Virus record (IMG/VR): IMGVR_UViG_3300020374_000001
Direction: 5' to 3' (one strand)
DNA length: 64,000 bases
From: a virus
Lineage: Duplodnaviria > Caudoviricetes
Shown here: positions 1-64,000 of the stretch, one piece after another
Numbering within the stretch: the stretch's first letter is position 1
Layout of the letters: each line of letters starts with the position of its first letter
The notes under the pieces: model-generated
The model's input: only the letters and a program-made list of their open reading frames with translations
Database searches by the model: none
What the model was told of the DNA's origin: nothing
Program-made: the position numbers and the translations under genes

Positions 1-554
1 CATTCTATAGCATATTCATCACTAGTTTGTAAAGGTATGTTAACTCTTAATAATTGACAAGTAGGTTCATCAACGTGCCAACCTTTATCGTTAGGTCCTT
101 CTCCATATCCAAAAATATATGCAACTCTACTCCTAGATATATGAAAATTAAATCTATCTAAAAAAAATCCTAGATGTTCTTGTATTGTTTCATCTATCTT
201 TCTAAAACCAAATGTATCATAATAAGTATCTTTTAATTGTGTATGATCTCCTTTGCCTTTTTCTAAACCATAGTATTGATCTAACAATGGCGATCCCCAT
301 ACTTGACTATATCTACTTTCAGATTTATCAAAAAATGTAGGGTTGTAAGTTAACCCAAAACCTTTGTATTTTTGATGAGTTTGATGTTTAGTTCTCCAAC
401 TTGTAAGACCTACTATACTTTCTATTTTTTTAACACCTTCTAGTATCTTGTCTGCTGTAGGAAGACCTAATTCTTCTAAAGTATATTCATTCCAACCAAA
501 ATCTTCTTGTTTTTCATCTACTTTTTTAAAGTAAGATTTCACTTCATTTATCAT
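1..554 (-). CDS. 2OG-Fe(II)/Asp-Asn beta-hydroxylase-like dioxygenase (runs off the window start)
   Basis: Manual minus-strand translation from ATG at 554: MINEVKSYFKKVDEKQEDFGW...SRSRVAYIFGYGEGPNDKGWHVDEPTCQLLRVNIPLQTSDEY. The HxD + RxxIPL signature fits the cupin hydroxylase family. Open to position 1; not in the ORF track. Confidence 0.7.
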   Translation of the reverse strand, partial: MINEVKSYFKKVDEKQEDFGWNEYTLEELGLPTADKILEGVKKIESIVGLTSWRTKHQTHQKYKGFGLTYNPTFFDKSESRYSQVWGSPLLDQYYGLEKGKGDHTQLKDTYYDTFGFRKIDETIQEHLGFFLDRFNFHISRSRVAYIFGYGEGPNDKGWHVDEPTCQLLRVNIPLQTSDEYAIE

Positions 555-559
555 ATCCT

Positions 560-567
560 TATTTATT
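560..567 (-). promoter_or_regulatory. Late promoter variant AATAAATA, 5 nt before the ATG at 554
   Basis: Reverse complement of tatttatt; same spacing as the other NATAAATA-N5-ATG cases. Confidence 0.5.
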
Positions 568-1454: not shown

Positions 1455-3173
1455 ATGGCAACGGTAATACAGATTAAAAGAAGTTCAGCAACTTCAGCAC
1501 CAGGAACACTTAAACTCGGTGAATTAGCATACACTTATGGAACAGGCGCACAAAACAACCTAGGAGATAGAATCTTTATAGGTGAAGGTGGCGTTGACGG
1601 TAACGGTGACGCAAATAACGTATCAGTAATTGGAGGTCAATATTTTACAGATATGTTAGATCACGTACAAGGTACGTTGACAGGAAATTCAGCTATCATT
1701 GCAGATTCAAACTTAGCAATAGATACATTAAACGTAGGTAACTCACTAACAGCAGGTGGTGAAGTTAGATTTAACGAAGGTACTAATAACGGTACTAACT
1801 ACATAGGAATTAAATCTCCTAATGCAGTAACAGCTTCTCAAACTTTTGTTTTACCTGATGGTGACGGTACTGCTGGTCAGTTCTTAAAAACTGATGGATC
1901 AGGAAATTTAGATTTTACAACCGTTAATCAATTTATTAATTTAGCAGGTGATACAGGAACAGATACTTACAATACTTCCGAAACATTAACTTTCGCAGGT
2001 ACAGGTGGTATGACACAAACGGTTACTGATAATACGGTAACGGTAACTGCTACAGCATTAACAAACGCTAACTTATCTGGTACTGCTGGAATTACAAATG
2101 CTAATATAGCAAATCCTCAAGTATTAATAGGTGGTCAAACAATTACTTTAGGTGCCGCTGCTACAACAGATATTTCAGGTTTAACTTCTTTAGTTGTAGA
2201 TGATCTTACATTAAATGGTCAAACAATAACTACAACAGCAGGTAATAAAGATATTACTTTAACACCTCACGGTACAGGTACGGTAGTTGTACCATCAGGT
2301 TATGAAGACAGAGCAGGATTTACAGATAATTCACTTGCAAACAAAATGTATGTTGACCAAGTTGCACAAGGTTTAGATACTAAACCATCTTGTAAAATTG
2401 CAACAACGGCTAACTTATCAGCAACTTATAATAACGGTACTGCTGGTGTTGGTGCAACATTAACTAATTCAGGCACACAGGCAACATTAACACTTGACTC
2501 AACTGCTGCTAATTTAAACGATAGAGTTTTAGTTAAAGATCAAACAGACGCAAGTGAAAACGGTATTTACACGGTTACAAATGTTGGTAGTGCTTCTACA
2601 AATTGGGTATTAACAAGAGCAACTCCAGAAGATCAACCTGCTGAATTATCAGGTGGTTCTTTTGTATTCGTTGAAGAAGGTGTTTTAAATGCTAACAATG
2701 GTTATACATTTACACATACAGGTGCTCCTACTTTTGGAACAACTAATTTAGATGTATCACAATTCTCTGGTGCAGGTCAAATAACTGCTGGTGCCGCTTT
2801 AACAAAAGACGGTAATCAATTAGATGTTGCAGTAGATGATAGTTCAGTTGAAGTTAGTACAGACGCATTAAGAGTTAAGGCATTAGGTATTACAAATGCT
2901 ATGTTAGGTGGTTCTATTCAAACATCTAAACTTGCAAATCCATTTATAACTTTAACAGATGAAACTTCTACAACAGGAAGAGTTTATTTAGAAGAAAATT
3001 TAGAATTTTTAGCAGGTGAAGGAGTTAACACTATTGTTGATAACAACACAATTAAAATTGAGGGTGAAGACGCTTCAAACTCAAACAAAGGTGTTGCAAA
3101 ATTTAACTCAAATAATTTTACGGTAACTTCAGGTGATGTTGAAGTTAGTACGGTTGACGGAGGTACATTCTAG
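1455..3173 (+). CDS. Tail fibre/structural protein with Mtd-N-like N-terminus
   Basis: MATVIQIKRS...GELAY N-terminus, Gly/Thr-rich body, DRVLVKDQT..ENGIY domain, C-terminal DGGTF. Confidence 0.75.
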   Translation: MATVIQIKRSSATSAPGTLKLGELAYTYGTGAQNNLGDRIFIGEGGVDGNGDANNVSVIGGQYFTDMLDHVQGTLTGNSAIIADSNLAIDTLNVGNSLTAGGEVRFNEGTNNGTNYIGIKSPNAVTASQTFVLPDGDGTAGQFLKTDGSGNLDFTTVNQFINLAGDTGTDTYNTSETLTFAGTGGMTQTVTDNTVTVTATALTNANLSGTAGITNANIANPQVLIGGQTITLGAAATTDISGLTSLVVDDLTLNGQTITTTAGNKDITLTPHGTGTVVVPSGYEDRAGFTDNSLANKMYVDQVAQGLDTKPSCKIATTANLSATYNNGTAGVGATLTNSGTQATLTLDSTAANLNDRVLVKDQTDASENGIYTVTNVGSASTNWVLTRATPEDQPAELSGGSFVFVEEGVLNANNGYTFTHTGAPTFGTTNLDVSQFSGAGQITAGAALTKDGNQLDVAVDDSSVEVSTDALRVKALGITNAMLGGSIQTSKLANPFITLTDETSTTGRVYLEENLEFLAGEGVNTIVDNNTIKIEGEDASNSNKGVAKFNSNNFTVTSGDVEVSTVDGGTF

Positions 3174-25236: not shown

Positions 25237-25470
25237 ATGGCGTGGGTAGATGTACCAGGATCAAATAGTATTTGGCAGTATGATAATGCTGCTACTATTT
25301 CTAATACTTACAAAGATTCAGCAGATGGCAGTAATGTTGCTATCTCTGGTGGTATTAGAACTTTTACTAAACCAGGTGGTGGATCGACTCAAGTTTACAT
25401 AAGAACTAGAAAGAAAGGCGAAACGGTAGAACGAGGCGAACTTTCTAAAACTTTTTATGACGCACAATAG
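25237..25470 (+). CDS. Hypothetical virion protein
   Basis: 77 aa, GGAG RBS. Confidence 0.6.
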   Translation: MAWVDVPGSNSIWQYDNAATISNTYKDSADGSNVAISGGIRTFTKPGGGSTQVYIRTRKKGETVERGELSKTFYDAQ

Positions 25471-25479
25471 GAAATAGAA

Positions 25480-25872
25480 ATGGCAGATATAGTATCAACA
25501 CAAGTATTATCAGACACATCTGGAGTTAAGTACGTTGCAAAATTGACTAACATATCAGATGGTTCTGGTGAATCTTTAGTTAAAAAAATAGACGCTTCAA
25601 GTGCAACTTTTATGACCGAAGATGGTAGTAGAAAGATTGCAAAAATATGGTGGTCTGTTAATACAACAAAATCTAATGCAAGTGTAGAGTTAGTATGGGG
25701 TGGTGAAACAAACGCAACAGCAATGTTATTAAATGGTCAAGGTTATTGGGATTTAAGAACTGCTGGTAATGAGATTGTTAACAATGCTACTACACCTACA
25801 GGTGATGTTTTACTATCTACAAGGGACTTTGTAGTAGGGGATAATTACACGATTTTAGTAGAGTTTAGATAA
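25480..25872 (+). CDS. Hypothetical virion protein
   Basis: 130 aa, TGDVLLST motif, in the head module. Confidence 0.6.
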   Translation: MADIVSTQVLSDTSGVKYVAKLTNISDGSGESLVKKIDASSATFMTEDGSRKIAKIWWSVNTTKSNASVELVWGGETNATAMLLNGQGYWDLRTAGNEIVNNATTPTGDVLLSTRDFVVGDNYTILVEFR

Positions 25873-25879
25873 AAAAAGT

Positions 25880-25887
25880 TATAAATA
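25880..25887 (+). promoter_or_regulatory. Late promoter TATAAATA
   Basis: Exact consensus upstream of gp21. Confidence 0.85.
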
Positions 25888-25904
25888 TACAAGAGAGAGA
25901 ATAA

Positions 25905-26549
25905 ATGAAGTTAATATCCGAAGAAATCACAAACGCAGAATACCTAGTTGAAGAAACTAACGGTAAGAAGAATTATAAAATTAGAGGCGTTTTTCTACAA
26001 TCAGACTTAAAAAATAGAAATGGACGTGTCTATCCCAAAGACATATTGAATAATGAGGTAGAAAGATACAATAGAGAATTTATCAACAAAAAACGTGCAT
26101 TTGGTGAGTTAGGACATCCTGACGGACCAACGGTAAATCTGGAAAGAGTTAGTCATATGATTACTAAACTTGCACCAGATGGACAGAATTTTGTAGGTGA
26201 AGCAAAGATAATGAACACACCATACGGTAAGATTGTAAAAGGTCTTATTGACGAAGGTGCTCAACTAGGAGTATCTAGTAGAGGTATGGGTTCGTTAGAA
26301 ACAAGAGGTGGCGCAAACTATGTAAAAGATGACTTTTACTTGGCAACCGCTGCTGATATAGTCGCAGATCCAAGTGCTCCAGACGCTTTCGTAGAAGGTA
26401 TTATGGAGAGTAAAGAGTGGGTTTGGGACAACGGAGTACTCGTAGAAAAGAGCATAGAATCTTGGAAACGAGAGATAGAAAGTGCGAAAAGACACGCTTT
26501 AGCAGAAGCTAAAATAAAAGTCTTTAAAAACTTTCTTTCAAATCTCTAG
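25905..26549 (+). CDS. gp21: Prohead protease gp21
   Basis: NRNGRVYP, GELGHP, GVSSRGMGS, DIVADPSAP. Confidence 0.96.
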   Translation: MKLISEEITNAEYLVEETNGKKNYKIRGVFLQSDLKNRNGRVYPKDILNNEVERYNREFINKKRAFGELGHPDGPTVNLERVSHMITKLAPDGQNFVGEAKIMNTPYGKIVKGLIDEGAQLGVSSRGMGSLETRGGANYVKDDFYLATAADIVADPSAPDAFVEGIMESKEWVWDNGVLVEKSIESWKREIESAKRHALAEAKIKVFKNFLSNL

Positions 26550-26552
26550 TTT

Positions 26553-26560
26553 TATAAATA
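26553..26560 (+). promoter_or_regulatory. Late promoter TATAAATA
   Basis: Exact consensus upstream of gp22. Confidence 0.85.
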
Positions 26561-26611
26561 TTAACAATTAATTAATTAAAACTAGTTTTAACTATTAAAG
26601 AGGAGATTTCA

Positions 26612-27841
26612 ATGGCCGAAACAGACAAAACACTTGTTGAAGCAGGAAAAGAAGTAATGGAAGCAACAGCTCCAGATGCTCCTAAAAAGAACGCTGTACC
26701 CGCTGAGCCTTCACCGTTAAAAAATGACGCTGAAGATTTAGGCGCAGCTGTAGTAAAACCTACAGACAGCAATCCTGACGCAACAAAAAAAGTTAAAGAA
26801 GTTTCTGGGCAAGCACCTCAAAAATCAGAAGGTGCTCCTGATCCAATGCCAAAAATGGATTCAAAACATCCAGGTAAAGCAATGGAAGCAAAAGAAACTG
26901 ACAAAGATTCGGAAGATAAAGAAATCAAAGAAGGCGAAATGCCTGCAGGTCTTAAAAAGTACCTTGACAAAAAAGACGATAAAAAAGAGTCTATGGACGA
27001 CAAGGAAAAAGAGAAAGTGAATGCTTCATATAAAAAAGAAGACGCAGACGCTGACAAGAAAAAAGAAGAACCTAAGGCAGAAGAAAAAGAAGAAAAGAAA
27101 GATATTGACGTAAAAGAACACGTTGATGCTCTTGTCGCTGGAGAAGATTCATTATCTGAAGAATTTAAAACTAAAGCTGCTACCGTATTTGAAGCTGCGA
27201 TTAAATCTAAAGTAAAAGAAATCGCTGAAGAAATGCAGGCAGATTACGACAAGAAATTAACCGAAGAAACTTCTAAATCTAAAGATGAGTTAGTAGAAAA
27301 AGTTGACTCTTACCTTGCTTACGTAGTGGAAGAGTGGATGAAAGAAAACGAACTTGCTTTAGAAAGAGGAATCAAAGGTGAAATCGCTGAGGACTTTATT
27401 AGTGGTCTTAAAAAATTATTTGAAGATCATTATATTGATGTTCCAGACGAAAAATACAATGTATTAGAAGATCAATCTTCTAAAATTGAGGAGTTAGAAA
27501 AGAAACTTAACGAATCAATTGAAAAGAATGTTGAATTAACTAAAGAGAATGGCGAACACAAAAGACAAGACATCATTGATGAGGCGTCTAAAGAGTTAGC
27601 TGATACTCAAAAAGAAAAATTCAATAAACTTGCCGAAGAAGTTGAATATTCAAACGAAGAAGATTTTAAAACTAAAGTAGCAACTATTAAAGAGAGTTAC
27701 TTTGGTAAAAAAGAATCAACTAGTGAGATAGATGATGTGGCGGCAGAGTCGAATGCTGAGCAACCTCAGGATTTAACTAATGCAATGGCTGCTTATAGTG
27801 CCGCTATAAGTAAAACAAAAGACATTAAGTTGTCTAACTAA
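26612..27841 (+). CDS. gp22: Prohead core scaffold gp22
   Basis: LSEEFK.KA.TVFEAA, VDSYL.YVVEEW..EN, low-complexity acidic N-terminus. Confidence 0.93.
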   Translation: MAETDKTLVEAGKEVMEATAPDAPKKNAVPAEPSPLKNDAEDLGAAVVKPTDSNPDATKKVKEVSGQAPQKSEGAPDPMPKMDSKHPGKAMEAKETDKDSEDKEIKEGEMPAGLKKYLDKKDDKKESMDDKEKEKVNASYKKEDADADKKKEEPKAEEKEEKKDIDVKEHVDALVAGEDSLSEEFKTKAATVFEAAIKSKVKEIAEEMQADYDKKLTEETSKSKDELVEKVDSYLAYVVEEWMKENELALERGIKGEIAEDFISGLKKLFEDHYIDVPDEKYNVLEDQSSKIEELEKKLNESIEKNVELTKENGEHKRQDIIDEASKELADTQKEKFNKLAEEVEYSNEEDFKTKVATIKESYFGKKESTSEIDDVAAESNAEQPQDLTNAMAAYSAAISKTKDIKLSN

Positions 27842-27858
27842 TAGGGAGATAAAAACAA

Positions 27859-29214: not shown

Positions 29215-29246
29215 TATTGGTTGATCGTTGTTTGACGATTACTTTA

Positions 29247-29278
29247 AAGGGGCGGCCTCAAAACCGCCCCTTTTTTTT
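29247..29278 (+). terminator. Intrinsic terminator after gp23
   Basis: AAGGGGCGG-cctcaaaa-CCGCCCCTT plus T tract. Confidence 0.92.
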
Positions 29279-37230: not shown

Positions 37231-38042
37231 TAGATAGTGTTCCTTATAGATTTCCTACTGCTGAAGAAAGATGGCCTAGACAAGGTTCAACTATGCCTTA
37301 TAGTTTTCCTAAATTAGTAATAGAAGAACACGAAGGTTTTTATATAGTACGTGATGATTTATTAGAAGGTGGTTCTAAAAGAAGATTTGTAGATAGAATG
37401 ATTAGAGAAGAAATTGCTGAAGGCGCTGAAGAATTTGTTTATGGTGGTTGTCCTGCAAACGGTTATGCTCAACTATCTTTAACACTACAAGCAAAAGAGT
37501 ATGGTAAAAAAGCAGTATTCTTTATGGCAAAAAGATCAATGAATAATTTACACCCTTATCAAAAACAAGCATTAGAATATGGTGCAGATATACGTTGGGT
37601 ACCAAATGGTATGTTATCAGTTACTAAAAAAAGAGCAAGAGATTATTTTTATGAAGACCCAAAAAGAAGAAGATTATTGCCATTAGGTTTAGAAGAAAAA
37701 AGAGTATTTGAAGATATAAGAGATTTAGCAAAAGATATAGAAAAAGATTACAATATTAATATAAGTGAAATATGGTCAGTAGGATCAAGTGGTACATTAA
37801 CAAGAGGATTACAGATGGCATTTCCTGATAAAGATGTTAATGTAGTTTCAGTAGGACACAAAATGAAACAACACGAAATAGGTAGAGCAAAATTATATCT
37901 AACAAAATATAAATTTATGCAAGAGGTAAAAGAAGAAGACAAACCACCTTTTCCATCTGTGCCTACATATGACGCAAAGGCGTGGTCAATAATGAAAAAA
38001 TACGCAAAGAAAGGTAGTCTATTTTGGAATGTAGGAAAATAA
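37227..38042 (+). CDS. PLP-dependent enzyme (fold type II, TrpB/ACC-deaminase-like)
   Basis: VRDDLLEGGSKRR (Schiff-base Lys), VGSSGT phosphate-binding loop, YDAKAW. Confidence 0.8.
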   Translation: MIDSVPYRFPTAEERWPRQGSTMPYSFPKLVIEEHEGFYIVRDDLLEGGSKRRFVDRMIREEIAEGAEEFVYGGCPANGYAQLSLTLQAKEYGKKAVFFMAKRSMNNLHPYQKQALEYGADIRWVPNGMLSVTKKRARDYFYEDPKRRRLLPLGLEEKRVFEDIRDLAKDIEKDYNINISEIWSVGSSGTLTRGLQMAFPDKDVNVVSVGHKMKQHEIGRAKLYLTKYKFMQEVKEEDKPPFPSVPTYDAKAWSIMKKYAKKGSLFWNVGK

Positions 38043-39022
38043 CAATTGCTAGATTAAGAAGTGGTGTCAATTATAAACGACCACTAGATCATATTATAGA
38101 TTCATTTTGTTATCTATTAAAAAGATTTCAAATTAAGAATAGTGAATTTAGATATGGCGTATATAACTATGGTTATGACAAAGCACATAGAAGAATAGCA
38201 GATGATATACCTGATAGTGATATAATTATTATACCTAGTGAGAATGAATTTCATTACCATATACCTAATTATATTGATCCTAAAAATTTAGAAAAATCTA
38301 ATACTGCAATTAAAGAACACTTTAAAGATTTAAAAAATAAACACATTATAATATTAAGATCAGATAGAGGAGATGATGAAGACTTATATAGAAATCATAC
38401 ATTTAGAGATAAACCTATTGGCAAAGTATCTATATTAGATGAAACAGATATACCAGGAAATATACATCAATTAAAATATCATTTTATAAAAGATGAGATA
38501 CCAGATAATGAAACTAATAGACCTTATCTATTTTCATATTGGGGAACAGAAAAAAGACGAGATGTAGGTGGCATAACTAGTGGCGATAACAGACACGAAA
38601 TATTAAAAGAACTACAAGTTGGTATGGGTAAATTTAATACAAGATTCATTGGTAGATTTTCTACGGTTAAAAGAGATATGAAACCAGATAGTATGAGAAA
38701 CATACTACCTATATTAAACAAATCAAAATATACATTATGTTTTAATTGGAAAGATAATAAGGCAACCACAAGTAGATACCACGAGGCACTTGCCTGTGGC
38801 ATTATACCTATGGTTTATAAAGATTATGATTCGACAGGAATACTCGTAAAAGACGAATGGCAAAGAGTAGAAAGTGCTGAAGAATTACATCAAAAGATAA
38901 TGAATAGTGATTATTTTACAAAATATACACAAATCCACAATGCTTATAAGCAATCACTATTGACAAAGGATCAAATATATGATACCTTTGAATCTACATT
39001 ATTCAGAATAATAGGAGAATAA
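38024..39022 (+). CDS. T4 beta-glucosyltransferase-like GT-B enzyme
   Basis: YWG..R, TTSRYHEALACGIIPMVYKDYD...RVESAEELHQKI aligns by eye with T4 BGT TLRVWETMAS...DEEFD...VNNRAELIDRV; TTG start. Confidence 0.7.
   Translation: MECRKITIARLRSGVNYKRPLDHIIDSFCYLLKRFQIKNSEFRYGVYNYGYDKAHRRIADDIPDSDIIIIPSENEFHYHIPNYIDPKNLEKSNTAIKEHFKDLKNKHIIILRSDRGDDEDLYRNHTFRDKPIGKVSILDETDIPGNIHQLKYHFIKDEIPDNETNRPYLFSYWGTEKRRDVGGITSGDNRHEILKELQVGMGKFNTRFIGRFSTVKRDMKPDSMRNILPILNKSKYTLCFNWKDNKATTSRYHEALACGIIPMVYKDYDSTGILVKDEWQRVESAEELHQKIMNSDYFTKYTQIHNAYKQSLLTKDQIYDTFESTLFRIIGE
38960..38988 (+). promoter_or_regulatory. Possible internal sigma70-like promoter
   Basis: TTGACA-17nt-TACCTT with TG extension. Confidence 0.4.
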
Positions 39023-39023
39023 A

Positions 39024-39734
39024 ATGGCGTTAACAGACAAATATCAAAAGATAGAACAAGACGAAGTAAGGTTACAAGGTAATTTAAACTTTGGACCGTT
39101 TTGTGCTTACTTTAGAATACCTCAAAATTTTAGAGAAGGATTACTAAAAAAAGGCAAAGAATTAGAACCAGGAAGTGCTAATCCAAAACTTGTAGGTTTA
39201 ATTGGAGATCAAAGAAGTTATAATATGGAAGATAGAGAATGGTTTATAAAAAAGTTTCAACCTTTTTTAACTGAATATGTACACGGTAAATGCCGATTTG
39301 ATGGTCAGCAGTTTGATCCTAATAACCACTCTACATCATTTACATTAATTAACTTATGGATTAACTATATGAAAGGTGGTGAGTTTAATCCTGAACATAC
39401 TCACTCTGGACAACTTACCTGGGTTATATATTTAAAAGTACCAGATTTAAAAAAAGAACAAAGTGAATTTAAAGGAACTGGTCTTGGACCAGGTTCTATT
39501 GGATTTCATTATGGAGAAGGTGCAACTGGCGATTGGGCACAACATACTTATCAATATCAACCTGAATTAGATGGTATGTGGATATTTCCTGCACAATTAA
39601 GACATAGAGTAAATCCTTTCTATTCAAAAGAACAAGAAAGAATTAGTGTGTCAGGTAATATATTTTTCAATAGACCTAATACACCTTGTTTACCAGAACC
39701 ACCAAAAACACCACCTCCAGGTTGGCAATTTTAA
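39024..39734 (+). CDS. 2OG-Fe(II) oxygenase-like protein (HxH type)
   Basis: WINYMKGGEFNPEHTHSG, FPAQLRHRV.PF, RISVSGN. Confidence 0.85.
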   Translation: MALTDKYQKIEQDEVRLQGNLNFGPFCAYFRIPQNFREGLLKKGKELEPGSANPKLVGLIGDQRSYNMEDREWFIKKFQPFLTEYVHGKCRFDGQQFDPNNHSTSFTLINLWINYMKGGEFNPEHTHSGQLTWVIYLKVPDLKKEQSEFKGTGLGPGSIGFHYGEGATGDWAQHTYQYQPELDGMWIFPAQLRHRVNPFYSKEQERISVSGNIFFNRPNTPCLPEPPKTPPPGWQF

Positions 39735-39739
39735 TTTGA

Positions 39740-40813
39740 ATGGAACTAAAAGAAGTACACGATCTAATAAAGTCTAAAGGGTTTCCCTATTATCCCAAAG
39801 ATGAGAAATGGAGAAACAACATCTATAATATGTTGTTATCATTTAGACGTGATACTATGGTTGACCATAAGAATAAAGTCATAGGACAATCAACACACGG
39901 ATTAAATCTTGCGTGGTCTTTTATGGAACACGCTTGGGGTATTAAGTGTGGTAAGATGAAGACACCTATGGAAATATGGAATGACGAAGAACATTTAAGT
40001 AAAGGTATTAATAAGATACTTACAGGTACTTTCTTCAAAAAGAAACCAGCACACGATATAACAGATTCAGATATGAGATCAATGTTAAGAAGATACTCTG
40101 GCACTCAAATGGTTTCTAACTTTAGACCTACTGCTGCCGCTGCCTTATATGATATTTTTGTAGATAAAGATAGTCCATTAGAAGGTACATCTGCTGGTAC
40201 GGTATGGGATCCTAGTATGGGTTATGGTGGTAGATTACTAGGGGCAATTGCCGCTGGGGTTAATTATATAGGTACTGATCCTTGTATTCCTACATTTAAA
40301 GGTTTAGAACAAATAAGAGATAAGTACGGACATAAACATAAATCATATACACTATTAAGACAAGGTAGTGAAACATACGATCCTGAAGAAGAAAGTTTAG
40401 ACTTTGTATTTACTAGTCCACCTTACTTTGGTTGGGAAGCATATGGTGATGAACCTGAACAATCAAGTATTAAGTTTAATACAAGTGATATGTGGAAAGA
40501 GAAGTTTTTAAAACAGACTATTGCTAACGCATTTAAAGGTCTTAAAAAAGGTAAGAAACTAGCATTGAATGTTGCAAATACAAAACAATATAAAACATTT
40601 GAAGAAGACACGGTACAACTAGCACTAGATGTAGGATTTGAACATACAGATACTTGGTGGTTATCACTATCTACACAACAAGGTGGATCAACTACAACTA
40701 CATTAGACGGTGAATCAGTAGATAAGAAACAAGAGAATCGTTATCTAGGTAAGTTTAAAAGACCGAATCTAACAGGAAGAAAGTTTGAACCTACGTTTAT
40801 TTTTACGAAATAA
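39740..40813 (+). CDS. SAM-dependent amino-methyltransferase-fold DNA modification enzyme
   Basis: Motif I WDPSMGYGGRLLG and motif IV FTSPPY. Confidence 0.85.
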   Translation: MELKEVHDLIKSKGFPYYPKDEKWRNNIYNMLLSFRRDTMVDHKNKVIGQSTHGLNLAWSFMEHAWGIKCGKMKTPMEIWNDEEHLSKGINKILTGTFFKKKPAHDITDSDMRSMLRRYSGTQMVSNFRPTAAAALYDIFVDKDSPLEGTSAGTVWDPSMGYGGRLLGAIAAGVNYIGTDPCIPTFKGLEQIRDKYGHKHKSYTLLRQGSETYDPEEESLDFVFTSPPYFGWEAYGDEPEQSSIKFNTSDMWKEKFLKQTIANAFKGLKKGKKLALNVANTKQYKTFEEDTVQLALDVGFEHTDTWWLSLSTQQGGSTTTTLDGESVDKKQENRYLGKFKRPNLTGRKFEPTFIFTK

Positions 40814-40828
40814 GAACAAAAAGAGAAC
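40814..40828 (+). promoter_or_regulatory. Alphaproteobacterial LexA (SOS) box-like site GAAC-N7-GAAC
   Basis: gaacAAAAAGAgaac in intergenic DNA upstream of an early promoter. Confidence 0.5.
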
Positions 40829-40870
40829 ATTTATCTTCAAAAACCTAGTAAAATCAAGGAAAATTAACGC

Positions 40871-40899
40871 TTGACTTTTAAGTGAAAATGTCCTAGCAT
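40871..40899 (+). promoter_or_regulatory. Sigma70-like early promoter
   Basis: TTGACT-17nt-TAGCAT; predicted +1 at about 40906, next to ATG 40907. Confidence 0.7.
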
Positions 40900-40906
40900 A
40901 TAGAAT

Positions 40907-43192
40907 ATGGACAAAGATACACTTAATATAGATTCAAAATCACAACTAGCAAAACTACTTGCAACCGAAAACATTACGGTTCAACAAAATAATGTTAAAA
41001 CTGCTTCGTTTGATGTAGTTAATAGAATACTTACATTACCAATATTTAAAACAGATTCAAAAGATGTAACTGATATGTTAGTGGCACACGAATGTGCTCA
41101 CGCTTTATTTACACCGACTAATGGTTGGAAAAGAATTGCTGATGATGATGAGTTAAGAGGATATGTTAATGTATTAGAAGATTGCAGAATTGACGCAAAA
41201 GTACAAAAGAAATATCCAGGTGTTATTACTAACTACTTGAATGGTTTTGAAATACTTAACAGACAAAATTTCTTTGGTCTAAAAGATAAAGACTATGATA
41301 AAGACTTAATGTTAATTGATAAAATTAATATATTCTATAAGTCTTCAAAAAAATTATTATTTAACTTTTCAACTGCTGATAGTATATGGTTAAAAAGAGT
41401 TGACGCATTAAAAACTTTTAATGATGTAGTTAAACTTGCTAAAGAGTTATTAGAGTGGCAGAAAAAAGAAGTTAAGAAGATGAAAAAATTACCTGATTTT
41501 GACAATCACATATTAGTTGAAAACTACAATCTAAAGAATAATGAAAACGATTCAAAAGATAGTAAAGATATTGATGGTGATGGTAACAAAGATGATAATA
41601 AAGATAGTGAGTCTAAAGATAAACAAGACGCAACTGAAGGTAAAACAGAATCAGAATCAAAACAAGATAAACCTGCTGTAGGTGATAAGACTGCCAAAGA
41701 TGAAAACTCTAGTGGCGGTGGTGCTGTAGGTTCTGGTGGTGATATGCCACTTACTTCTATTACTAACAATTGGTTTGAAGGTCATAAAGAAAAATTATTA
41801 GATACTAATACAAGTTATTATTATAGATCAATACCAGAACCTATATTAAATAAAGTTATCCATTCAAATAAAGATTTCGTTAATGATATGAAAGCAGCAT
41901 TTATGGCTGATAAGGCAACTGCTAGTAAGTATTTACCTTATCTTAAAAAAGAATATAAAAAGTTTATGAATGATTCTAAAAAAACTATAATGTATCTAGT
42001 TAAAGAATTTGAAATGAAAAAAGCAGCAACTGCTTATAAGAGATCAACTTTAGATAAAACAGGAACTATTGATCCTCTTAAATTACATAGTTATAAATTT
42101 AATGAAGATATATTTAAAAGATTAACTATATTACCAGACGCTAAAAACCACGGTATGATGATGTTGTTAGATTGGTCAGGTAGTATGAGTGATACCATTT
42201 TTAAAACGGTACAACAAACAATTCAGTTAGTATCATTTTGTCAAAAAACAAATATACCTTTTGAGTTATATTTCTTTAGTAGTGAAATGGATAAAAAAGA
42301 TGAAGACTATTCATACAAAAGAAGTAAAAATTTTAAATATAAACCTGGCGATATGGGTATTGATAGAATTAAATTAGTTAATGTTGCAAGTCATAAGTTA
42401 AAGAAAAACAAATTAGAAGAATCTCTAATGTATCTATACCACTTAGCAATGTATTATGAACATAGATATTGTTGGAGAAGTAATAGAGATCCGTATGCTT
42501 TTGATAGACCTGATTCAGTACATATACCTAGTGAGTATTATCTAGGTTCTACACCTTTAAATGAGGCATTAATTGTTATGTTAAAATTAGTACCTTTATT
42601 TAAAAACAAATATAAAATTGAAAAAATGAATTTAATTACTTTAACTGATGGCGGTGGTAACTATGGTTGTTCAGAAACAATGGCAATTGATCCAGAGTCA
42701 AAACAACTTATAGGTACACATCCAGAAAATCAAGGTAATACAGATGTTATGATATATAAAAAGAAATATCATTCCGTTAAAGATGAATTTTATGGTTATA
42801 GATCAACTGGTATAACAGGTACTCTATTGAATATGTTAAGAGATTACCACAATATTACAACTATCGGTTTCTATCTAGTTAAAAGAATAAGAAGGTGGGA
42901 AACTGATATGTATTTCAGACCTCAACACATAAGAGATTATGCTAAAAGAGATCAAATATACTTAAAGAATAGAAGTAAATTTAATAAAGAGAAGGTATGT
43001 GCTGTACCTCAAAAAGGTTATGATGATTATTATATTGTTAATGCTAAAGATATGAAAGTTGAGAATACTGATTTAGATGGTATTAATGATACTATGAAAA
43101 CTGGTAAGATTAAATCTTTATTCAGTAAGAGTATGAAAGGAAGAATCACTTCCAGAGTGCTTTTAAACAAGTTTATTGAGAAGGTTGCATAA
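40907..43192 (+). CDS. Metallopeptidase-like (HExxH) plus vWA domain protein (CobT-like partner)
   Basis: VAHECAHAL, NVLEDCRI, acidic linker, MIDAS LDWSGSM, GSTPL, LTDG. Confidence 0.85.
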   Translation: MDKDTLNIDSKSQLAKLLATENITVQQNNVKTASFDVVNRILTLPIFKTDSKDVTDMLVAHECAHALFTPTNGWKRIADDDELRGYVNVLEDCRIDAKVQKKYPGVITNYLNGFEILNRQNFFGLKDKDYDKDLMLIDKINIFYKSSKKLLFNFSTADSIWLKRVDALKTFNDVVKLAKELLEWQKKEVKKMKKLPDFDNHILVENYNLKNNENDSKDSKDIDGDGNKDDNKDSESKDKQDATEGKTESESKQDKPAVGDKTAKDENSSGGGAVGSGGDMPLTSITNNWFEGHKEKLLDTNTSYYYRSIPEPILNKVIHSNKDFVNDMKAAFMADKATASKYLPYLKKEYKKFMNDSKKTIMYLVKEFEMKKAATAYKRSTLDKTGTIDPLKLHSYKFNEDIFKRLTILPDAKNHGMMMLLDWSGSMSDTIFKTVQQTIQLVSFCQKTNIPFELYFFSSEMDKKDEDYSYKRSKNFKYKPGDMGIDRIKLVNVASHKLKKNKLEESLMYLYHLAMYYEHRYCWRSNRDPYAFDRPDSVHIPSEYYLGSTPLNEALIVMLKLVPLFKNKYKIEKMNLITLTDGGGNYGCSETMAIDPESKQLIGTHPENQGNTDVMIYKKKYHSVKDEFYGYRSTGITGTLLNMLRDYHNITTIGFYLVKRIRRWETDMYFRPQHIRDYAKRDQIYLKNRSKFNKEKVCAVPQKGYDDYYIVNAKDMKVENTDLDGINDTMKTGKIKSLFSKSMKGRITSRVLLNKFIEKVA

Positions 43193-43232
43193 TATGGATC
43201 AAAACATCAATAAAAACAAGGGTTATTACTGC

Positions 43233-43261
43233 TTGACTTTTGAGTCGAATTATGATAGCCT
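43233..43261 (+). promoter_or_regulatory. Sigma70-like early promoter
   Basis: TTGACT-17nt-TAGCCT with TG extension; upstream TAAAAWCAAGG element shared with the 40871 promoter. Confidence 0.65.
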
Positions 43262-53085: not shown

Positions 53086-53240
53086 TGAATATAATAGAAG
53101 TAACATTGATAATTGCAATAAGTTTACATTGGGGATTTGCAACAGGTGGATTTTTAGCAATGAAAACTGACTGGTCAATACCTAGATTTATAATTATATG
53201 TTTATTAATGAGATATTTTGTGATGAGTTATGGATACTAA
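53085..53240 (+). CDS. Small two-helix membrane protein (51 aa)
   Basis: MNIIEVTLIIAISLHWGFATGGFLAMKTDWSIPRFIIICLLMRYFVMSYGY; coupled to the gp43 stop (TAATG). Confidence 0.6.
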   Translation: MNIIEVTLIIAISLHWGFATGGFLAMKTDWSIPRFIIICLLMRYFVMSYGY

Positions 53241-53772
53241 TAAAAAATATAATGTAATATATGCTGACCCACCTTGGTCATTTAAAACTTATTCAGATAA
53301 AGGTAAAGATAGAAGTCCTGAAAAACATTATAGTGTTATGAATTTTAAAGATATATGTAATATGCCTATTGATAAAATAGCAAACGATAATTCAGTATTA
53401 TTAATGTGGGTTATTGATCCTTTACTTGACAAAGCATTTGAAGTAATTAATGCTTGGGGTTTCAAGTACAAGACCGTTGCATTTACTTGGGCGAAGACGA
53501 ATAAAACTAAACCTGGTTTCTTTACAGGTCTTGGATACTGGACTAGAGGTAATCCTGAAATGTGTTTACTTGCAACAAAAGGTAAACCTAAACGAATCAG
53601 TAAATCAGTACCTCAATTAGTAGTAGAACAACGTAGAGAACATAGTAGAAAACCTGATATAATGTATAAACATATAGAAGATTTACTAGAAGGACCTTAT
53701 ATAGAATTGTTTGCTAGACAACAAAAAGAAGGTTGGGATAGTTTTGGAAATGAGGTAACAAAGTGGAATTGA
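53230..53772 (+). CDS. MT-A70 family adenine methyltransferase
   Basis: IYADPPW, WGFKY, HSRKP, ELFAR..GW..GNE. Confidence 0.92.
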   Translation: MDTNKKYNVIYADPPWSFKTYSDKGKDRSPEKHYSVMNFKDICNMPIDKIANDNSVLLMWVIDPLLDKAFEVINAWGFKYKTVAFTWAKTNKTKPGFFTGLGYWTRGNPEMCLLATKGKPKRISKSVPQLVVEQRREHSRKPDIMYKHIEDLLEGPYIELFARQQKEGWDSFGNEVTKWN

Positions 53773-53858: not shown

Positions 53859-54312
53859 TGTAAACGATTTTTTTAAATGGGTAAAAGGTACCGAGTTAGT
53901 AGAACTTGACAACATAGATGTATCTGAGGATCCTGTTAGACCTGAATTAACTCTAGGTTTTAGAATTACAAACGGTAGAAAAATCTTTGGATTAAAATAT
54001 GAAAATGAGATAGAAGCAATTATTTGCGTTGCGTTTTGTCCTGAAGTACCTTACACGGTTAGAGAAATGGATTATATGTCCAGAGTAAAAGATGGCAAAT
54101 GTGCCATTGCATATACGGTATGGTCTCGTAAAAGAGGTGCAGGTAAAGAGATAGTAAAAAAATTAGGTGAGTGGGCAAAGAAACGTAAGATGGAAAGACT
54201 TGTAACTCTATCACCATTAACACCTATGGCAACACACTTTCATATTAAGAACGGTGCTAAACAAGTACATATAAATGATGAAACACAAAACTTTGAATAT
54301 GACATTAAGTAA
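53839..54312 (+). CDS. GNAT-fold protein (malonyl-CoA-decarboxylase-like TLSP motif)
   Basis: YTVWSRKRGAGKEIV (acyl-CoA loop) and LVTLSP. Confidence 0.6.
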   Translation: MKILKDSVNDFFKWVKGTELVELDNIDVSEDPVRPELTLGFRITNGRKIFGLKYENEIEAIICVAFCPEVPYTVREMDYMSRVKDGKCAIAYTVWSRKRGAGKEIVKKLGEWAKKRKMERLVTLSPLTPMATHFHIKNGAKQVHINDETQNFEYDIK

Positions 54313-55561
54313 TTACGCTGACGAAAATGGATTGCCTATTATGGATCAACTCTCTTTTGAGAGAATGACAAATGATATTGGCAAAGAACAATTTAGATTA
54401 GACTTAGCAGAATACATAGAGAAGAATAGACCTAAATTTCCTCTAAAGAAAATAACTTTAGATGATGTAAGAAACTCTTTTTATGATTTACAAAAACAAG
54501 ATATTACAAAGTATTGTAAACTTAATGACAATAATGTTATGGAAAAATATAATGATTACAAATATAATTATAAAGATTATGGTCTAGGTATTATAGACGC
54601 ACCATCAACTTATAATAATGTATCTAATTATTTTCACCAAGAATTAAGATTAAATTGTTCTAGTTATAGTTTCAAAGCACCTTTAGATGTATGGTACAAT
54701 GGTACTGCAAAAGATATATGGCGTTGTCTAGGTCCTATCTGGCGAGGTATCAACAATATGAAGAAGGTTATGGTTGACGGTAAAGAAGAATTAAGAGGTG
54801 GTCAACTATCTGAAGCAAGTTATTTAAGTGCATTTAGATTAGGTACATATATTGCAACTCAATTTAAACCTAATGTTGCTAAAACAATTTACCATTTAAC
54901 CAATGCAAAAAGAGTTTTAGATACAAGTTGTGGATGGGGAGATAGACTTGCTGGTTTCTTTGCCTCAGACGCTGAGGAATATATAGGATGTGATCCTAAC
55001 CCTAATACATATAAACAATATATGAAACAGATAGAAGTATATAATAGTTTTCTATCTAAACCTAAAAAAGTTAAAATATATAATTGTGGTGCTGAAGATT
55101 TACCTTGGGATGAAATAAAAGATATTGATTGTTCATTTACAAGTCCACCATATTTTTCTACTGAAGAATATAATAAAGGTGGTGAGAAAGAAGAAAATCA
55201 ATCGTGGTTTAAATTTAATGAGTATGAAAAATGGCGTGATGATTTCTTTTTACCTGTATCTAAAAAATGTTTTGAAAGATCAAAACATACTATAATTAAT
55301 ATTATGGATCCACAAGTAAAAGGTAAAAGATATAGAAGTTGTGATGAAGTTGTTGATATGTTAAAAGATAATTTTGTAGGTCAAATAGGTATGAGAATTA
55401 TGCAAAGACCTAAATCAGATAAACTATTTGAAACAGAAAAAGATAAGCAAGAGTTTATGAATAAAACATTTATAGAAAATGTATGGTGTTTTTCTAAAGA
55501 TAAAAATGTAGATTTATTTAGCACAGCAAGGAAAGGAACACTTGATAGTTTCTTTTCATAA
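54299..55561 (+). CDS. Second SPPY amino-methyltransferase-fold DNA modification enzyme
   Basis: LDTSCGWGDRLAG motif I, FTSPPY motif IV; start at 54275 or 54299. Confidence 0.85.
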   Translation: MTLSNYADENGLPIMDQLSFERMTNDIGKEQFRLDLAEYIEKNRPKFPLKKITLDDVRNSFYDLQKQDITKYCKLNDNNVMEKYNDYKYNYKDYGLGIIDAPSTYNNVSNYFHQELRLNCSSYSFKAPLDVWYNGTAKDIWRCLGPIWRGINNMKKVMVDGKEELRGGQLSEASYLSAFRLGTYIATQFKPNVAKTIYHLTNAKRVLDTSCGWGDRLAGFFASDAEEYIGCDPNPNTYKQYMKQIEVYNSFLSKPKKVKIYNCGAEDLPWDEIKDIDCSFTSPPYFSTEEYNKGGEKEENQSWFKFNEYEKWRDDFFLPVSKKCFERSKHTIINIMDPQVKGKRYRSCDEVVDMLKDNFVGQIGMRIMQRPKSDKLFETEKDKQEFMNKTFIENVWCFSKDKNVDLFSTARKGTLDSFFS

Positions 55562-59013: not shown

Positions 59014-60084
59014 ATGGCAGATTATTTACAAGGAGGAGCACAAACAACTATAACAGCAACTATAACGGAGCTGTTTCCAGCATTGTGGTTCAACACTAAA
59101 AACAAAAAACCCACCAACGTAAAAGAACTACAAGATTTCATTTACGATTACGACAATAAAAACAACAAAGCATACATAGACGCACAAGATAATAAAGCAG
59201 GCAAAGATAATATCTCTCTAGCATTTTCTAGGATTAATCCTACATTGTTTAATGAAAAAATGCAAAATGCTTTTGCTATTACTTGTTATCTATTTCATAC
59301 TCACGCAGATAATCCTATTAGTTATGTTGTATGGGGATATAGAAAAAAACCTAAAGGTGTTCCTGAAAATCATTCAGGTGATGTATTCATTATGCACAAG
59401 AATGGAGAGATTACAGGAGTTAGTTTAAAAGCAGGTAAAGAGAAATCTATGGAACCTAAATTAAACACTTATGTAGGAACAACTTTAAGACAACCTTATT
59501 ATAAAGCACTTGACTCTCAAGCAGAAAATAAGTTGAAAAGAAGATTGTGGAATGAAGTATATTCTAAAATTAAAGTACCTAAAACGGTAAATGAAAACAA
59601 TTATTATATGCAAAGTAATGATAGAACAAAACCTAATCCAGATATGGTTTTAAGTTTAGTAGCATTTTTTAAGAGAGATTTTAATAAGTTTGACCAAGGT
59701 TATGGTGTAATGAATAAAGTTTGTAGAGAAGAGGTTGCTAAGATGGTAAATAAAAATGTCAAAGCAACAAAAGAATGGATTACAAAAGAATTTAGATTAC
59801 AGAAAGCACAAAAAGTACCTTTAATAGTTGTTAAAGCAATTAAAGATACATACAAAGAACTAGGTGATCCATTGCCTAATTTTTTACCTAAAGTAACTAA
59901 AGTTAAAGCATACTTAAATACGTCTTCAGTACAAGAATGGTTTATAGATTTAATGAGTAATAAGAAAAAATTAACTTTAAAAATGACTATTAGATCGGAT
60001 GCTGGGTTTAGACCTGAAAAACCTAAAGGTAAATTAGGTAAATTTAATATGTTAAAATTGCAGTATAATGGAGTAAAAAAATAA
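59014..60084 (+). CDS. PD-(D/E)xK-superfamily nuclease-like protein
   Basis: N-terminal helix TE, then SGDVFI..NGEITGVSLK (D...SxK variant). Confidence 0.55.
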   Translation: MADYLQGGAQTTITATITELFPALWFNTKNKKPTNVKELQDFIYDYDNKNNKAYIDAQDNKAGKDNISLAFSRINPTLFNEKMQNAFAITCYLFHTHADNPISYVVWGYRKKPKGVPENHSGDVFIMHKNGEITGVSLKAGKEKSMEPKLNTYVGTTLRQPYYKALDSQAENKLKRRLWNEVYSKIKVPKTVNENNYYMQSNDRTKPNPDMVLSLVAFFKRDFNKFDQGYGVMNKVCREEVAKMVNKNVKATKEWITKEFRLQKAQKVPLIVVKAIKDTYKELGDPLPNFLPKVTKVKAYLNTSSVQEWFIDLMSNKKKLTLKMTIRSDAGFRPEKPKGKLGKFNMLKLQYNGVKK

Positions 60085-61372: not shown

Positions 61373-62067
61373 TGAAAAGAACTTTACAAGAAGTTAGAGA
61401 ATACATTAACGAAGGTGTTTACGATCCTGGTATATTCAAAGCATTTTTTCTTGCAGGTGGACCTGGGTCAGGTAAAACTTTTGTAACTTCAAGTGCGTTT
61501 GCAGGTACAGGTTTAAAACTAGTTAATTCAGATGTTAAGTTTGAAAGAGATTTAAGAAAAGCAAATCTATCATTAAAAATGCCAGATGAAGAAAAATATT
61601 TTAGAGATAGAATTAGACAAGGTGCAAAGGCATTTGTAGGTAAACAATTAGATCAATACTTACAAGGTAGATTAGGTATGATTATAGATAGTACAGCAAG
61701 AGATTATTCAGTTATACAAAGACAATATAATTTATTAAGAAACATTGGATACGATTGTTATATGGTATTTGTTAATACAAGTTTAGATGTTGCAATAGAA
61801 AGAAATAGAACTAGAAGTAGATCAATACCTGAATACATAGTACAAAAAAGTTGGAAAGGTGTTCAAGCAAATATGGGTGCGTTTCAAAAAGTATTTGGAC
61901 ATAGTAAAATGTTAATAGTAGATAACAATAGAGATGATAAAGAATTAGTTACACAAACTTTAAATACTGCTTCAAGGTTTATTAGAAGTAGATTAAGAAC
62001 TAAACCAGAAAATGGAATTGCAATGTCTTGGATTAAAAGAGAATTAGAGGCAAAGAAAAGAATATGA
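61372..62067 (+). CDS. P-loop kinase (zeta-toxin/polynucleotide-kinase-like)
   Basis: FLAGGPGSGKT, NSD, IIDST, RNRTRSR lid; start at ATG 61372. Confidence 0.85.
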   Translation: MKRTLQEVREYINEGVYDPGIFKAFFLAGGPGSGKTFVTSSAFAGTGLKLVNSDVKFERDLRKANLSLKMPDEEKYFRDRIRQGAKAFVGKQLDQYLQGRLGMIIDSTARDYSVIQRQYNLLRNIGYDCYMVFVNTSLDVAIERNRTRSRSIPEYIVQKSWKGVQANMGAFQKVFGHSKMLIVDNNRDDKELVTQTLNTASRFIRSRLRTKPENGIAMSWIKRELEAKKRI

Positions 62068-64000
62068 GCATAGGATTTAAAGATTACTTATTTAAATATT
62101 TAAAAGATAAGCAACAAGATGAGGCAGTCATAGATATACCTAGACAGACTTATGCTACAGGTGTGTTCTCTAATCCTGAAGATAAGGATCCAAAAATTAA
62201 ACCTGAAATTATCGGTCAGATAATGAAACAATTTACAGAATTTAAAAAAGAATATCCTATATTAGATTATTCTTTAATAGGTTCTATCTTAACTAAAAGA
62301 TATAGAGATGACGCTGATTTAGATATAAATGTTTTGTTTGATGTACCTAAAGAGAAACAAGAAGAAGAAAGATTAAGATTATCGCAAAAGTTTTTATCTG
62401 CTAAAAATCCTGATAACATACAAGGTAAATTAATACCTGGTACAAGACACCCTATTAATTATTATTTTATTACAGACAAAGAAACTTATGACGATCAGAA
62501 TAAAAAGGCAGACGCAGTATTTGATATAGGTAAAAATAAATTTATTAAACGACCTGAGGATTTTGAATTTGATCCTGCGTTATATGTAAAAGATTTTGAG
62601 AAGAAAGTACAAGAGATAGATGTAATCAAAGGCGAATTAAAAAGAGATATAATAGATTACAAAGAATTAAAAGGACTAAAAACAAATGATGTTTTGAATT
62701 TACAAGATAAAGTAAAAGACAAGTTAGAAGAAATAGAAGATAGTATAGAAGACATTATAAAAATAGGTGATATGGTTGACGCTGAAAGAAGAAAAGCGTT
62801 TGATAGTGATATGTCGCCTGAAGAAATAAGACAATACGGTATAAAAAATAGATTACCTAAAGCAGTAATCTATAAGATGTTAGAGAAATACCATTACATA
62901 ACTTTCTACAAATATTGTAAGAAGATATTAGATGATGGTGTAGTAACTGATAAAGAGATTGACGATTTAGATATAAACGAGGCAAGAAGAAAGTCAATTG
63001 CATTTACATTTGGTAGATTTAATCCACCAACATCTGGACACGAAAAACTAATTAAGAAAGTTGCAAGTGTTAGAGCAGATACTTTTAAAATATATTTAAG
63101 TAGAAGTAATGATCCTAAAAAGAATCCATTATCGCCTAGAACAAAACTAACTCATATGAAAATGATGTTTCCTAGATATAGTAGAAACATTGAAATCAAT
63201 AACACTAATATGATTTTAGATATAGCAAGTAAATTACATAGACAAGGATTTACTGAAATCTTTATGGTCGTAGGTAGTGATAGAGTTAGAGAATTTGAAA
63301 CAATACTTAACAAGTATAATGATGTAAGAAGTAGGCACGGATATTATAACTTTGCTAATATTAATGTATTATCAGCAGGTGAAAGAGATCCAGATTCAGA
63401 AGGTGTATCAGGTATGTCAGCAAGTAAGATGAGGGACGCTGCTACTAAAGATGATTATAACACATTTAAGAAAGGTGTACCTACAGGATATAGAAATGCA
63501 GATGATTTATTTAAAGATGTAAGAAAAGGAATGAGATTAGTAGCAAGTATGGAATACGATACTAACTTTAGACCGATAAAAACTTTACAAGAATTTGAAC
63601 AAAATCAAATAAGAGATTTATATATTAGAGAAATGATCTTTAATATAGGAGACAAAATTAAATATATCAAAGAAGATATTGATGGTAAAGTGATTAGAAA
63701 AGGTACAAATTATATTGTACTAGAAGATAACAACAACAATTTACACAAAGCGTGGATATGGGATTGTTTACCAAATCCAGCAGATAGAGAGGCACAAGTG
63801 AGAGAACACAATTTAGATGTAGATTACGGCTTTACAGCAGTTTCTACTAAAGAAGATATGGATAGGTTGCCACAAGATAAAGACGTTAAGAAAAAAGACG
63901 GAACACAACCTAAAAAGTATTACAAAGATATGTCAAAAGACACAAAATCAAAAAGAGCAGATCATTTTAAAAAGACAGATACTACTAAAAATGACAATGA
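62064..64000 (+). CDS. Fusion protein: Pol-beta-type nucleotidyltransferase + HIGH-superfamily cytidylyl/adenylyltransferase + further domains (runs off the window end)
   Basis: Manual translation: IGSILTKRYRDDADLDINV (GS...DxD), then FGRFNPPTSGH, VGSDR, MSASKMR; open to 64000; not in the ORF track. Confidence 0.85.
   Translation, partial: MSIGFKDYLFKYLKDKQQDEAVIDIPRQTYATGVFSNPEDKDPKIKPEIIGQIMKQFTEFKKEYPILDYSLIGSILTKRYRDDADLDINVLFDVPKEKQEEERLRLSQKFLSAKNPDNIQGKLIPGTRHPINYYFITDKETYDDQNKKADAVFDIGKNKFIKRPEDFEFDPALYVKDFEKKVQEIDVIKGELKRDIIDYKELKGLKTNDVLNLQDKVKDKLEEIEDSIEDIIKIGDMVDAERRKAFDSDMSPEEIRQYGIKNRLPKAVIYKMLEKYHYITFYKYCKKILDDGVVTDKEIDDLDINEARRKSIAFTFGRFNPPTSGHEKLIKKVASVRADTFKIYLSRSNDPKKNPLSPRTKLTHMKMMFPRYSRNIEINNTNMILDIASKLHRQGFTEIFMVVGSDRVREFETILNKYNDVRSRHGYYNFANINVLSAGERDPDSEGVSGMSASKMRDAATKDDYNTFKKGVPTGYRNADDLFKDVRKGMRLVASMEYDTNFRPIKTLQEFEQNQIRDLYIREMIFNIGDKIKYIKEDIDGKVIRKGTNYIVLEDNNNNLHKAWIWDCLPNPADREAQVREHNLDVDYGFTAVSTKEDMDRLPQDKDVKKKDGTQPKKYYKDMSKDTKSKRADHFKKTDTTKNDN

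Follow-up and report, generated by a model that had tools for sequence, protein, structure and literature searches.

What has removed the word ACWGT (W, A or T) from a stretch of viral DNA in which its sister word ACSGT (S, C or G) is frequent? The stretch, IMG/VR record IMGVR_UViG_3300020374_000001, was analysed as a single window of 64,000 bases. A previous reading made from the sequence alone had claimed that ACWGT is fully avoided and ACSGT used freely, and had attributed this either to a host restriction or defence system or to self-avoidance of a phage nuclease such as the product of open reading frame (ORF) 59014. By exact count, ACAGT and ACTGT each occurred 0 times in the window. CAGT was present 118 times and CTGT 83 times, and neither was ever preceded by A, so that the earlier claim to this effect held over the full count. 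A maximal-order Markov model predicted 38.0 + 24.4 = 62 ACWGT sites. A shuffle in which synonymous codons were permuted within each gene for 300 rounds, with proteins and per-gene codon usage kept, predicted 110.1 ± 6.9 sites, with a minimum of 93 in the 300 shuffles (z = −16). These results confirm that the absence of ACWGT is real and far beyond chance, the depletion being strong under both the Markov and the codon-preserving null, as the sequence-only reading had wished to see examined. ACSGT, in comparison, was indeed used freely, with 155 sites against 78 expected by shuffle (z = +10.6); ACCGT was found 26 times and ACGGT 129 times, where the Markov model predicted 22 and 119.

The avoidance was confined to this word. 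When every single-base neighbour and every NCWGN word (N, any base) was counted, only ACWGT was missing. The ratios of observed to expected counts for 13 neighbouring word pairs ranged from 0.86 to 1.4, the exceptions being ACAGC/GCTGT at 0.64 and ACSGT at 2.0. The enzymes Tsp4CI, TaaI and HpyCH4III recognize ACNGT, which has the outer AC..GT and the length of five in common with ACWGT; a test for a target of this type was negative, since not all four ACNGT words were depleted. Because ACCGT and ACGGT are not avoided and ACSGT is present at twice the expected level, the responsible agent accepts only A or T at the central position. The earlier judgement that this is not the familiar ACNGT specificity therefore stands.

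Inspection of codon usage revealed how the word is kept out. Throughout the window, threonine was encoded by ACA (719), ACT (590), ACC (77) and ACG (112), so that ACA and ACT made up 1309 of the 1498 codons (87%). Immediately before valine, threonine was written as ACC 22 times and as ACG 61 times, and never as ACA or ACT; the rule, which the sequence-only reading had drawn from examples such as the ACGGT words at 2019, 2034 and 2040, thus holds in 83 of 83 pairs. Before other codons that start with G, ACA (187) and ACT (178) prevailed over ACG (15) and ACC (14). When Asn, Asp, His or Tyr was followed by serine encoded by AGT, the NAT codon was used 84 times and NAC not once, and the same was true before cysteine encoded by TGT (25 NAT, 0 NAC). 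Where glutamine followed a codon ending in A and preceded one starting with T, it was encoded by CAA in 90 cases and by CAG in none. These results demonstrate that the ACWGT purge is silent, and that it operates by context-dependent codon choice in all three frames.

Patchy distribution of the ACWGT-free state among related phages

The window contains 68 called genes, covers 95.7% of its length with coding sequence, all on the plus strand except one gene, and has a guanine-plus-cytosine (GC) content of 32%. At the DNA level, its structural region shares 78% identity with the Pelagibacter phages Mosig EXVC030M and HTVC008M. Most of its core genes have homologues in Mosig, HTVC008M or both, with the gene order kept and with protein identities of 60-87% to Mosig and 40-71% to HTVC008M; a ribosomal protein S21 gene is common to all three. 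Judged by these similarities, the window is part of a T4-like pelagimyophage related to the two SAR11 phages. Near-identical DNA was found in marine metagenomes of at least 8 studies, dated 2013-2025, which indicates that the lineage is natural and persistent rather than an artefact. An exact 35-mer from the window matched only two short IMG/VR contigs.

We examined whether the relatives also lack ACWGT. Both cultured phages carry the word at normal levels, with 259 sites against 255 expected in Mosig and 361 against 329 in HTVC008M, and have purged sets of their own. In Mosig these are ACGT (0/166, observed/expected), GATC (19/366) and CGCG (0/45), and in HTVC008M TCGA (2/95), GATC (83/379) and CGCG (1/68); CASTG and TCTAGA are avoided by both.

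A search with the capsid protein yielded 80 IMG/VR contigs for comparison, whose ACWGT status is given below as observed/expected. The closest contigs, L006 and L007 (88-90% DNA identity), were free of ACWGT (0/6 and 0/7), whereas an equally close sister group, L008 to L011 (86-89% identity), was normal (8/8, 11/12, 20/17 and 22/19). At the ACWGT positions of this sister group, the window mostly has a one-base variant, namely ACGGT, ACCGT, ATAGT, ATTGT or ACAAT, which is the kind of change that the observed synonymous codon choices produce. The word was also missing from a second clade near Mosig (L022 0/5, L040 0/5, L029 0/3, L019 0/2 and L025 0/3) and nearly so from L060 (1/6). On the capsid protein tree, ACWGT-free contigs fall in no fewer than three separate places, and branches with good support imply a minimum of three changes of ACWGT state.

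Further contigs were found through homologues of ORF 59014. Four of these were free of the word (L141 0/3, L142 0/5, L143 0/5 and L146 0/11), two were possibly intermediate (L144 2/7 and L145 1/5), and L147 was near normal (5/8). L144 and L145 may represent lineages midway in gaining or losing the purge. Both carry 77% identical homologues of ORF 59014 and a 93-94% identical copy of the methylase-like gene that starts at 54275. The sequence-only reading had proposed to look for the depletion in related phages and hosts, and it does recur in some of the phages. ACWGT-free and normal lineages are only 10-12% apart in DNA. Gain or loss of the ACWGT-free state is thus rapid and recurrent, as expected from a selective agent that is present in only some host strains.

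Other purged words and the surviving TCGA sites

ACWGT turned out to be one of about 15 purged words, a point that the sequence-only reading had overlooked. By the codon-preserving shuffle (observed/expected), the palindromic words AGCT (36/218), CATG (0/94), TCGA (5/75), CTWAG (11/76), CASTG (1/36), CCGG (0/17), TGATCA (1/19), TCTAGA (0/23) and GATATC (1/14) were depleted, and so were the asymmetric words GATGC/GCATC (18/88), GAGAC/GTCTC (9/42) and TCAAGA/TCTTGA (1/45). CGCG was absent as well (0/8 by shuffle, 0/23 by the Markov model). TGCA, ACGT and AGCC/GGCT were partly reduced. GATC, GTAC, CTAG and GANTC were not reduced, GANTC being present 142 times against about 130 expected; GATC is purged in Mosig and HTVC008M and not in the window. 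Several of the purged words equal textbook Type II sites. For CTWAG and for TCAAGA/TCTTGA, both strongly purged, we know of no enzyme. CGCG is absent or nearly absent from Mosig, HTVC008M and essentially all pelagimyophage-like contigs examined (L006-L085 and L141-L158), while the remainder of the purged set differs between lineages.

The few surviving copies of some of these words were scrutinized for their surroundings. All five surviving TCGA sites overlap GANTC (Table 1), compared with 11% in codon-preserving shuffles (P about 1.7e-5), as does the sole TCGA of the relative L010. The most economical interpretation is N6-methylation of adenine at GANTC in the phage DNA, a mark that would shield an overlapping TCGA from an enzyme that cuts there. 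The methyl groups would be supplied either by a CcrM-like enzyme of the host or by one of the three methylase-like genes of the window. Survival of just those TCGA sites that overlap GANTC would be an exception predicted by restriction and not by other causes, and we infer from it that methylation-sensitive restriction has acted on the DNA of the window. Among other words, GATGC/GCATC survives mostly as GGATGC/GCATCC (11 of 18; GCATC is found, for example, at 16195, 45503, 46062 and 52264), GAGAC survives as GGAGAC in 7 of 8 cases, and GCGC is preceded by G in 17 of 21. A phage methylase whose site overlaps these words may have protected the copies with such a flanking base.

Table 1. Features of the window referred to in the text, with positions in the 64,000-base window
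Feature	Position	Strand	Remarks
Surviving TCGA sites (five)	25384, 27749, 30468, 38831, 43245 (span 25384..43248)		each overlaps GANTC (TCGANTC or GANTCGA)
MT-A70-type DNA methyltransferase gene	53230..53772	+	adjoins DNA polymerase gene; PF05063, E 4.7e-29; phrog_359, E 4.5e-82
Second DNA methyltransferase-like gene	54275..55561	+	weak match; PF01555, E 6e-4 (below cut-off); phrog_67, phrog_12517
Third DNA methyltransferase-like gene	39740..40813	+	phrog_12517, E 3e-10; phrog_498, phrog_6025 (DNA methyltransferase)
ORF 59014, accessory gene of marine T4-like phages	59014..60084	+	356 amino acids; phrog_2496 (function unknown), E 1.7e-62
Tail-fibre-like gene	1455-3173	+	contains three ACG-GTN Thr-Val pairs, 2019..2046
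Sole minus-strand ORF	3-719	−	238 amino acids, open at window edge

Of the three methyltransferase-like genes, the second and third, which match known families weakly, are possibly paralogues of each other. Comparison with the Mosig record and HTVC008M yielded no homologue of either, the second giving no tblastn match. The third has a 90% identical homologue in L016, in which ACWGT is normal. The minus-strand ORF at the edge of the window matched nothing in Pfam or PHROG and was without homologues in Mosig, in HTVC008M and in all contigs compared.

Probable restriction-site avoidance and its alternatives

The loss of ACWGT probably results from avoidance of restriction sites, under selection by a host-population endonuclease that recognizes ACWGT (or ACAGT). 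The infected bacteria would contain a site-specific endonuclease that cuts unmodified ACWGT. Each new ACWGT site would render the phage DNA cleavable, and variants with a synonymous alternative would take over, with ACC or ACG before valine, NAT before AGT or TGT, and CAA for CAG between A and T. By the same process, other enzymes would have caused the loss of about fourteen further words. The patchy and recurring ACWGT-free state, the sharp specificity, the silent nature of the purge and the company of other purged words all fit a restriction or defence nuclease. Of the two causes offered by the sequence-only reading, the footprint of restriction or defence is thus favoured, and self-avoidance of a phage nuclease is not, as far as ACWGT is concerned. 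The agent would be a restriction enzyme, located in the host population and probably in SAR11. An analysis of 135 complete Pelagibacter genomes, posted as a preprint in 2026, reported that restriction-modification genes were enriched among strain-specific genes (bioRxiv 10.64898/2026.04.03.716430), which we count in favour of a host enzyme.

Several observations weigh against restriction by a host enzyme. No enzyme or methylase of ACWGT specificity was found in the literature, a search that did not cover REBASE; the word appeared there only inside degenerate primers, and no paper paired it, as a word, with a methyltransferase. The 64 kb of the window are part of a genome that measures roughly 140-180 kb, so that a phage-borne cause could lie elsewhere in it. 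The host is deduced only from kinship with cultured SAR11 phages, and the marine methylome study of Seong et al. 2022 (PMC9516812) describes its SAR11 genomes as being without restriction-modification systems. Our own survey of hosts points in the same direction. SAR11-like genomes were recognized by the published signature of depleted GAWTC and undepleted GASTC (for example, 25/58 and 22/22 in G176, and 20/55 and 12/12 in G448), and 401 genomes of the SAR11-like order, all of 0.7-1.5 Mb, were examined for WWACWGTW relative to the reversed control. None had a ratio below 0.55, the range being 0.55 to about 1.3; the depletion seen in some related phages did not extend to these genomes. The lowest 16 of the 401 formed a group at 0.55-0.68, with counts about 40% below the reversed control (including G580, G617, G619, G640, G648, G651 and G661). 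In six of these 16, the Markov model gave 275/377 (0.73) for ACWGT and 47/83 (0.57) for ACSGT, which looks like a mild clade-level effect on ACNGT and not an ACWGT purge. Since no SAR11-like genome comes near the zero of the phage, an ACWGT enzyme in SAR11, if there is one, must be rare, recent or confined to the strain level.

Cellular depletion of ACWGT was also screened in a class-level sample of 401 genomes, and outliers were rechecked by Markov observed/expected counts. Both 401-genome tallies, that of the SAR11-like order and that of the class-level sample, take in four unpublished genomes (G101, G300, G588 and G794), which underlie none of the specific claims made here. Two genomes of 1.4 Mb each stood out, G376 (GC 0.52; ACWGT 8/79, ACSGT 42/85) and G153 (GC 0.39; ACWGT 7/39, ACSGT 55/71). 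They have 20 and 24 matches, respectively, to the N6_N4 DNA methylase family, and further palindromes are depleted in both, with about five depleted words in common. They show that restriction-rich bacteria, too, can be under selection against ACWGT, and are candidate carriers of an ACWGT system; a single methylase for ACWGT was not separable among the 20-24 matches and the common depleted words. Ten other genomes that seemed depleted (G016, G056, G006, G178, G240, G163, G449, G143, G183 and G282) were normal by the Markov counts, the raw ratio of pattern to reversed control being misleading outside AT-rich genomes through composition artefacts. Two other routes to SAR11 genomes were abandoned: the phage S21 gene returned other Alphaproteobacteria, the first centre (G001) belonging to another order, and the SAM-V riboswitch gave one borderline match in an order of 25 genomes.

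Could the phage itself be the source of the nuclease? It would then encode an ACWGT-specific enzyme without a partner methylase, use it to destroy host DNA, and escape by having no sites. ORF 59014 is the candidate. Its product had no Pfam match at E up to 10 and no sequence match in PDB. Its neighbours in the ESM Atlas, which is based on a protein language model, include RE_HaeIII clusters. An AlphaFold model built from 13 homologues (predicted local distance difference test score, pLDDT, of 84) was compared with known structures. Foldseek matched it to HinP1I (E 1.4e-4, probability 1.0, template modelling score only 0.29-0.38) and also to MspI. With VIA-align, the best matches were nuclease domains, those of Dna2 (Z 6.4) and of a Cas4-like protein (Z 6.0); the nuclease domain of AddA (Z 4.9), HinP1I (Z 4.5, 187 residues) and MspI (Z 4.3, 188 residues) also matched, every Z being below 8 and the scores modest. 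All of these are PD-(D/E)XK nucleases. D123 and S137-L138-K139 are invariant in the 13 homologues, a pattern that resembles the Asp ... (Gln/Asn)-x-Lys sites of HinP1I and MspI and may correspond to them. A nuclease fold of the HinP1I/MspI-like PD-(D/E)XK type is therefore a fair guess from the predicted structure, in agreement with the earlier suggestion that ORF 59014 encodes a nuclease. The gene lies next to a gp41-like helicase gene and a DUF6267 gene, with no methylase gene adjacent, and its family is found at a variable locus that follows the gp41 helicase gene, here as well as in the cyanophages S-RIM2 and S-SSM7. SAR11-like genomes, with their normal frequency of ACWGT, would be cuttable by such an enzyme.

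The distribution of the ORF 59014 family does not follow that of the ACWGT-free state. Contigs with 75-77% identical homologues had ACWGT counts of 0/5, 2/7, 1/5, 0/11 and 5/8, and those with homologues of at most 58% identity were normal (15/21, 12/18, 26/27 and 21/26). S-RIM2 and S-SSM7 carry the family with ACWGT at 88/101 and 77/79; ACG-2014b also carries a homologue. Because homologues sit in ACWGT-normal phages, ORF 59014 is, on this comparative evidence, probably not the ACWGT agent, and the part of the earlier suggestion that gave it a role in self-avoidance of this word is not supported. Other checkable lineage-specific genes of the window likewise occur in ACWGT-normal phages, and about fifteen purged words would require many phage nucleases. 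We therefore consider self-avoidance quite unlikely as the cause of the ACWGT loss. A link of ORF 59014 to CCGG was also considered and rejected: CCGG is missing around nearly all carriers, yet it is missing from non-carriers as well, namely P-HM2 (no tblastn match) and G880, a complete relative of 177 kb of which only 16 kb were sampled. G880 gave no match to the family profile in a search run without a positive control.

Two further explanations concern the nature of the target and of the agent. ACWGT consists of exactly ACAGT and its reverse complement, and counts on double-stranded DNA cannot separate a palindromic target from the asymmetric pentamer ACAGT, as would be read by a Type IIS, IIG or III enzyme; the same holds for CTWAG and CASTG. 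The purge of asymmetric words listed above speaks for such a target, which would still imply restriction avoidance. However, both orientations of ACAGT are wholly absent. A phage can evade classical Type III enzymes by retaining sites in one orientation only, and a total purge fits Type II better than Type III. An asymmetric target, although a little more plausible than self-avoidance, seems rather improbable. Hardly any weight can be given to a cause outside defence, in which ACWGT serves as a signal for phage machinery (packaging, replication, transcription or a homing enzyme) or falls victim to a bias of mutation or repair. A signal word would persist at a few functional places, and the window has none. 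The window has its core genes for replication, packaging and transcription in common with Mosig and HTVC008M, phages with hundreds of ACWGT sites. A bias of mutation would not leave all one-base neighbours intact and raise ACSGT to twice its expected level, and the ACWGT state differs between lineages 10-12% apart.

Relation to known systems and meaning for marine phages

Avoidance of short palindromes and restriction sites in virulent double-stranded DNA phages has been surveyed by Rusinov et al. 2018 (PMC6286503). The window shares with such cases the under-representation of short words, here measured against a corrected null, their synonymous removal, an avoided set that differs among relatives, and the loss of many words together. 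It differs from the classic cases in that no described cognate enzyme was found for ACWGT, that the purge is absolute (0 of about 110), and that SAR11, to which the hosts presumably belong, is described in the literature as having few restriction-modification systems (PMC9516812). The same study, Seong et al. 2022, reported GANTC depletion in some pelagiphages, mainly podoviruses, which divides the phage phylogeny. Our case resembles theirs in that depletion of a motif in SAR11 phages splits the phylogeny, and differs in the word and the phage group; in the window, GANTC is undepleted and seems to protect TCGA. Hiraoka et al. 2022 (PMC8919816) reported GAWTC methylation together with GAWTC-specific depletion in SAR11, as well as marine myovirus-like genomes with several N4-methylcytosine motifs and about two methylase genes each.

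Chloroviruses encode restriction-modification systems that degrade host DNA, and protect themselves by methylation. As a virus-borne, Type II-like nuclease, the predicted product of ORF 59014 may be an analogue. It differs from the chlorovirus systems in having no adjacent methylase, and no link to any single purged word was shown for it.

The phenomenon is well known in kind; this case is set apart by the word, by the host group and by how many words are purged. We tentatively propose, as a possibility rather than as the expected outcome, that ACWGT, and perhaps also CTWAG and TCAAGA, mark restriction specificities that are widespread in the ocean yet undescribed, present at the strain level in SAR11 and other marine bacteria, for which the purged phages would serve as a readout. 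Less likely, marine T4-like phages carry a nuclease of their own, of the ORF 59014 family, without a methylase, and are protected by having no sites. ACWGT is now a concrete word to seek in marine methylomes and enzyme screens, and since Mosig and HTVC008M have been cultured with their hundreds of ACWGT sites, the prediction is open to laboratory testing. A new five-base cutter, if the proposal is true, would be a useful reagent. SAR11 is the most abundant bacterial group of the ocean and is often described as nearly without restriction defences. That a phage of this group has erased about fifteen restriction-type words would mean that such nucleases act strongly on it.

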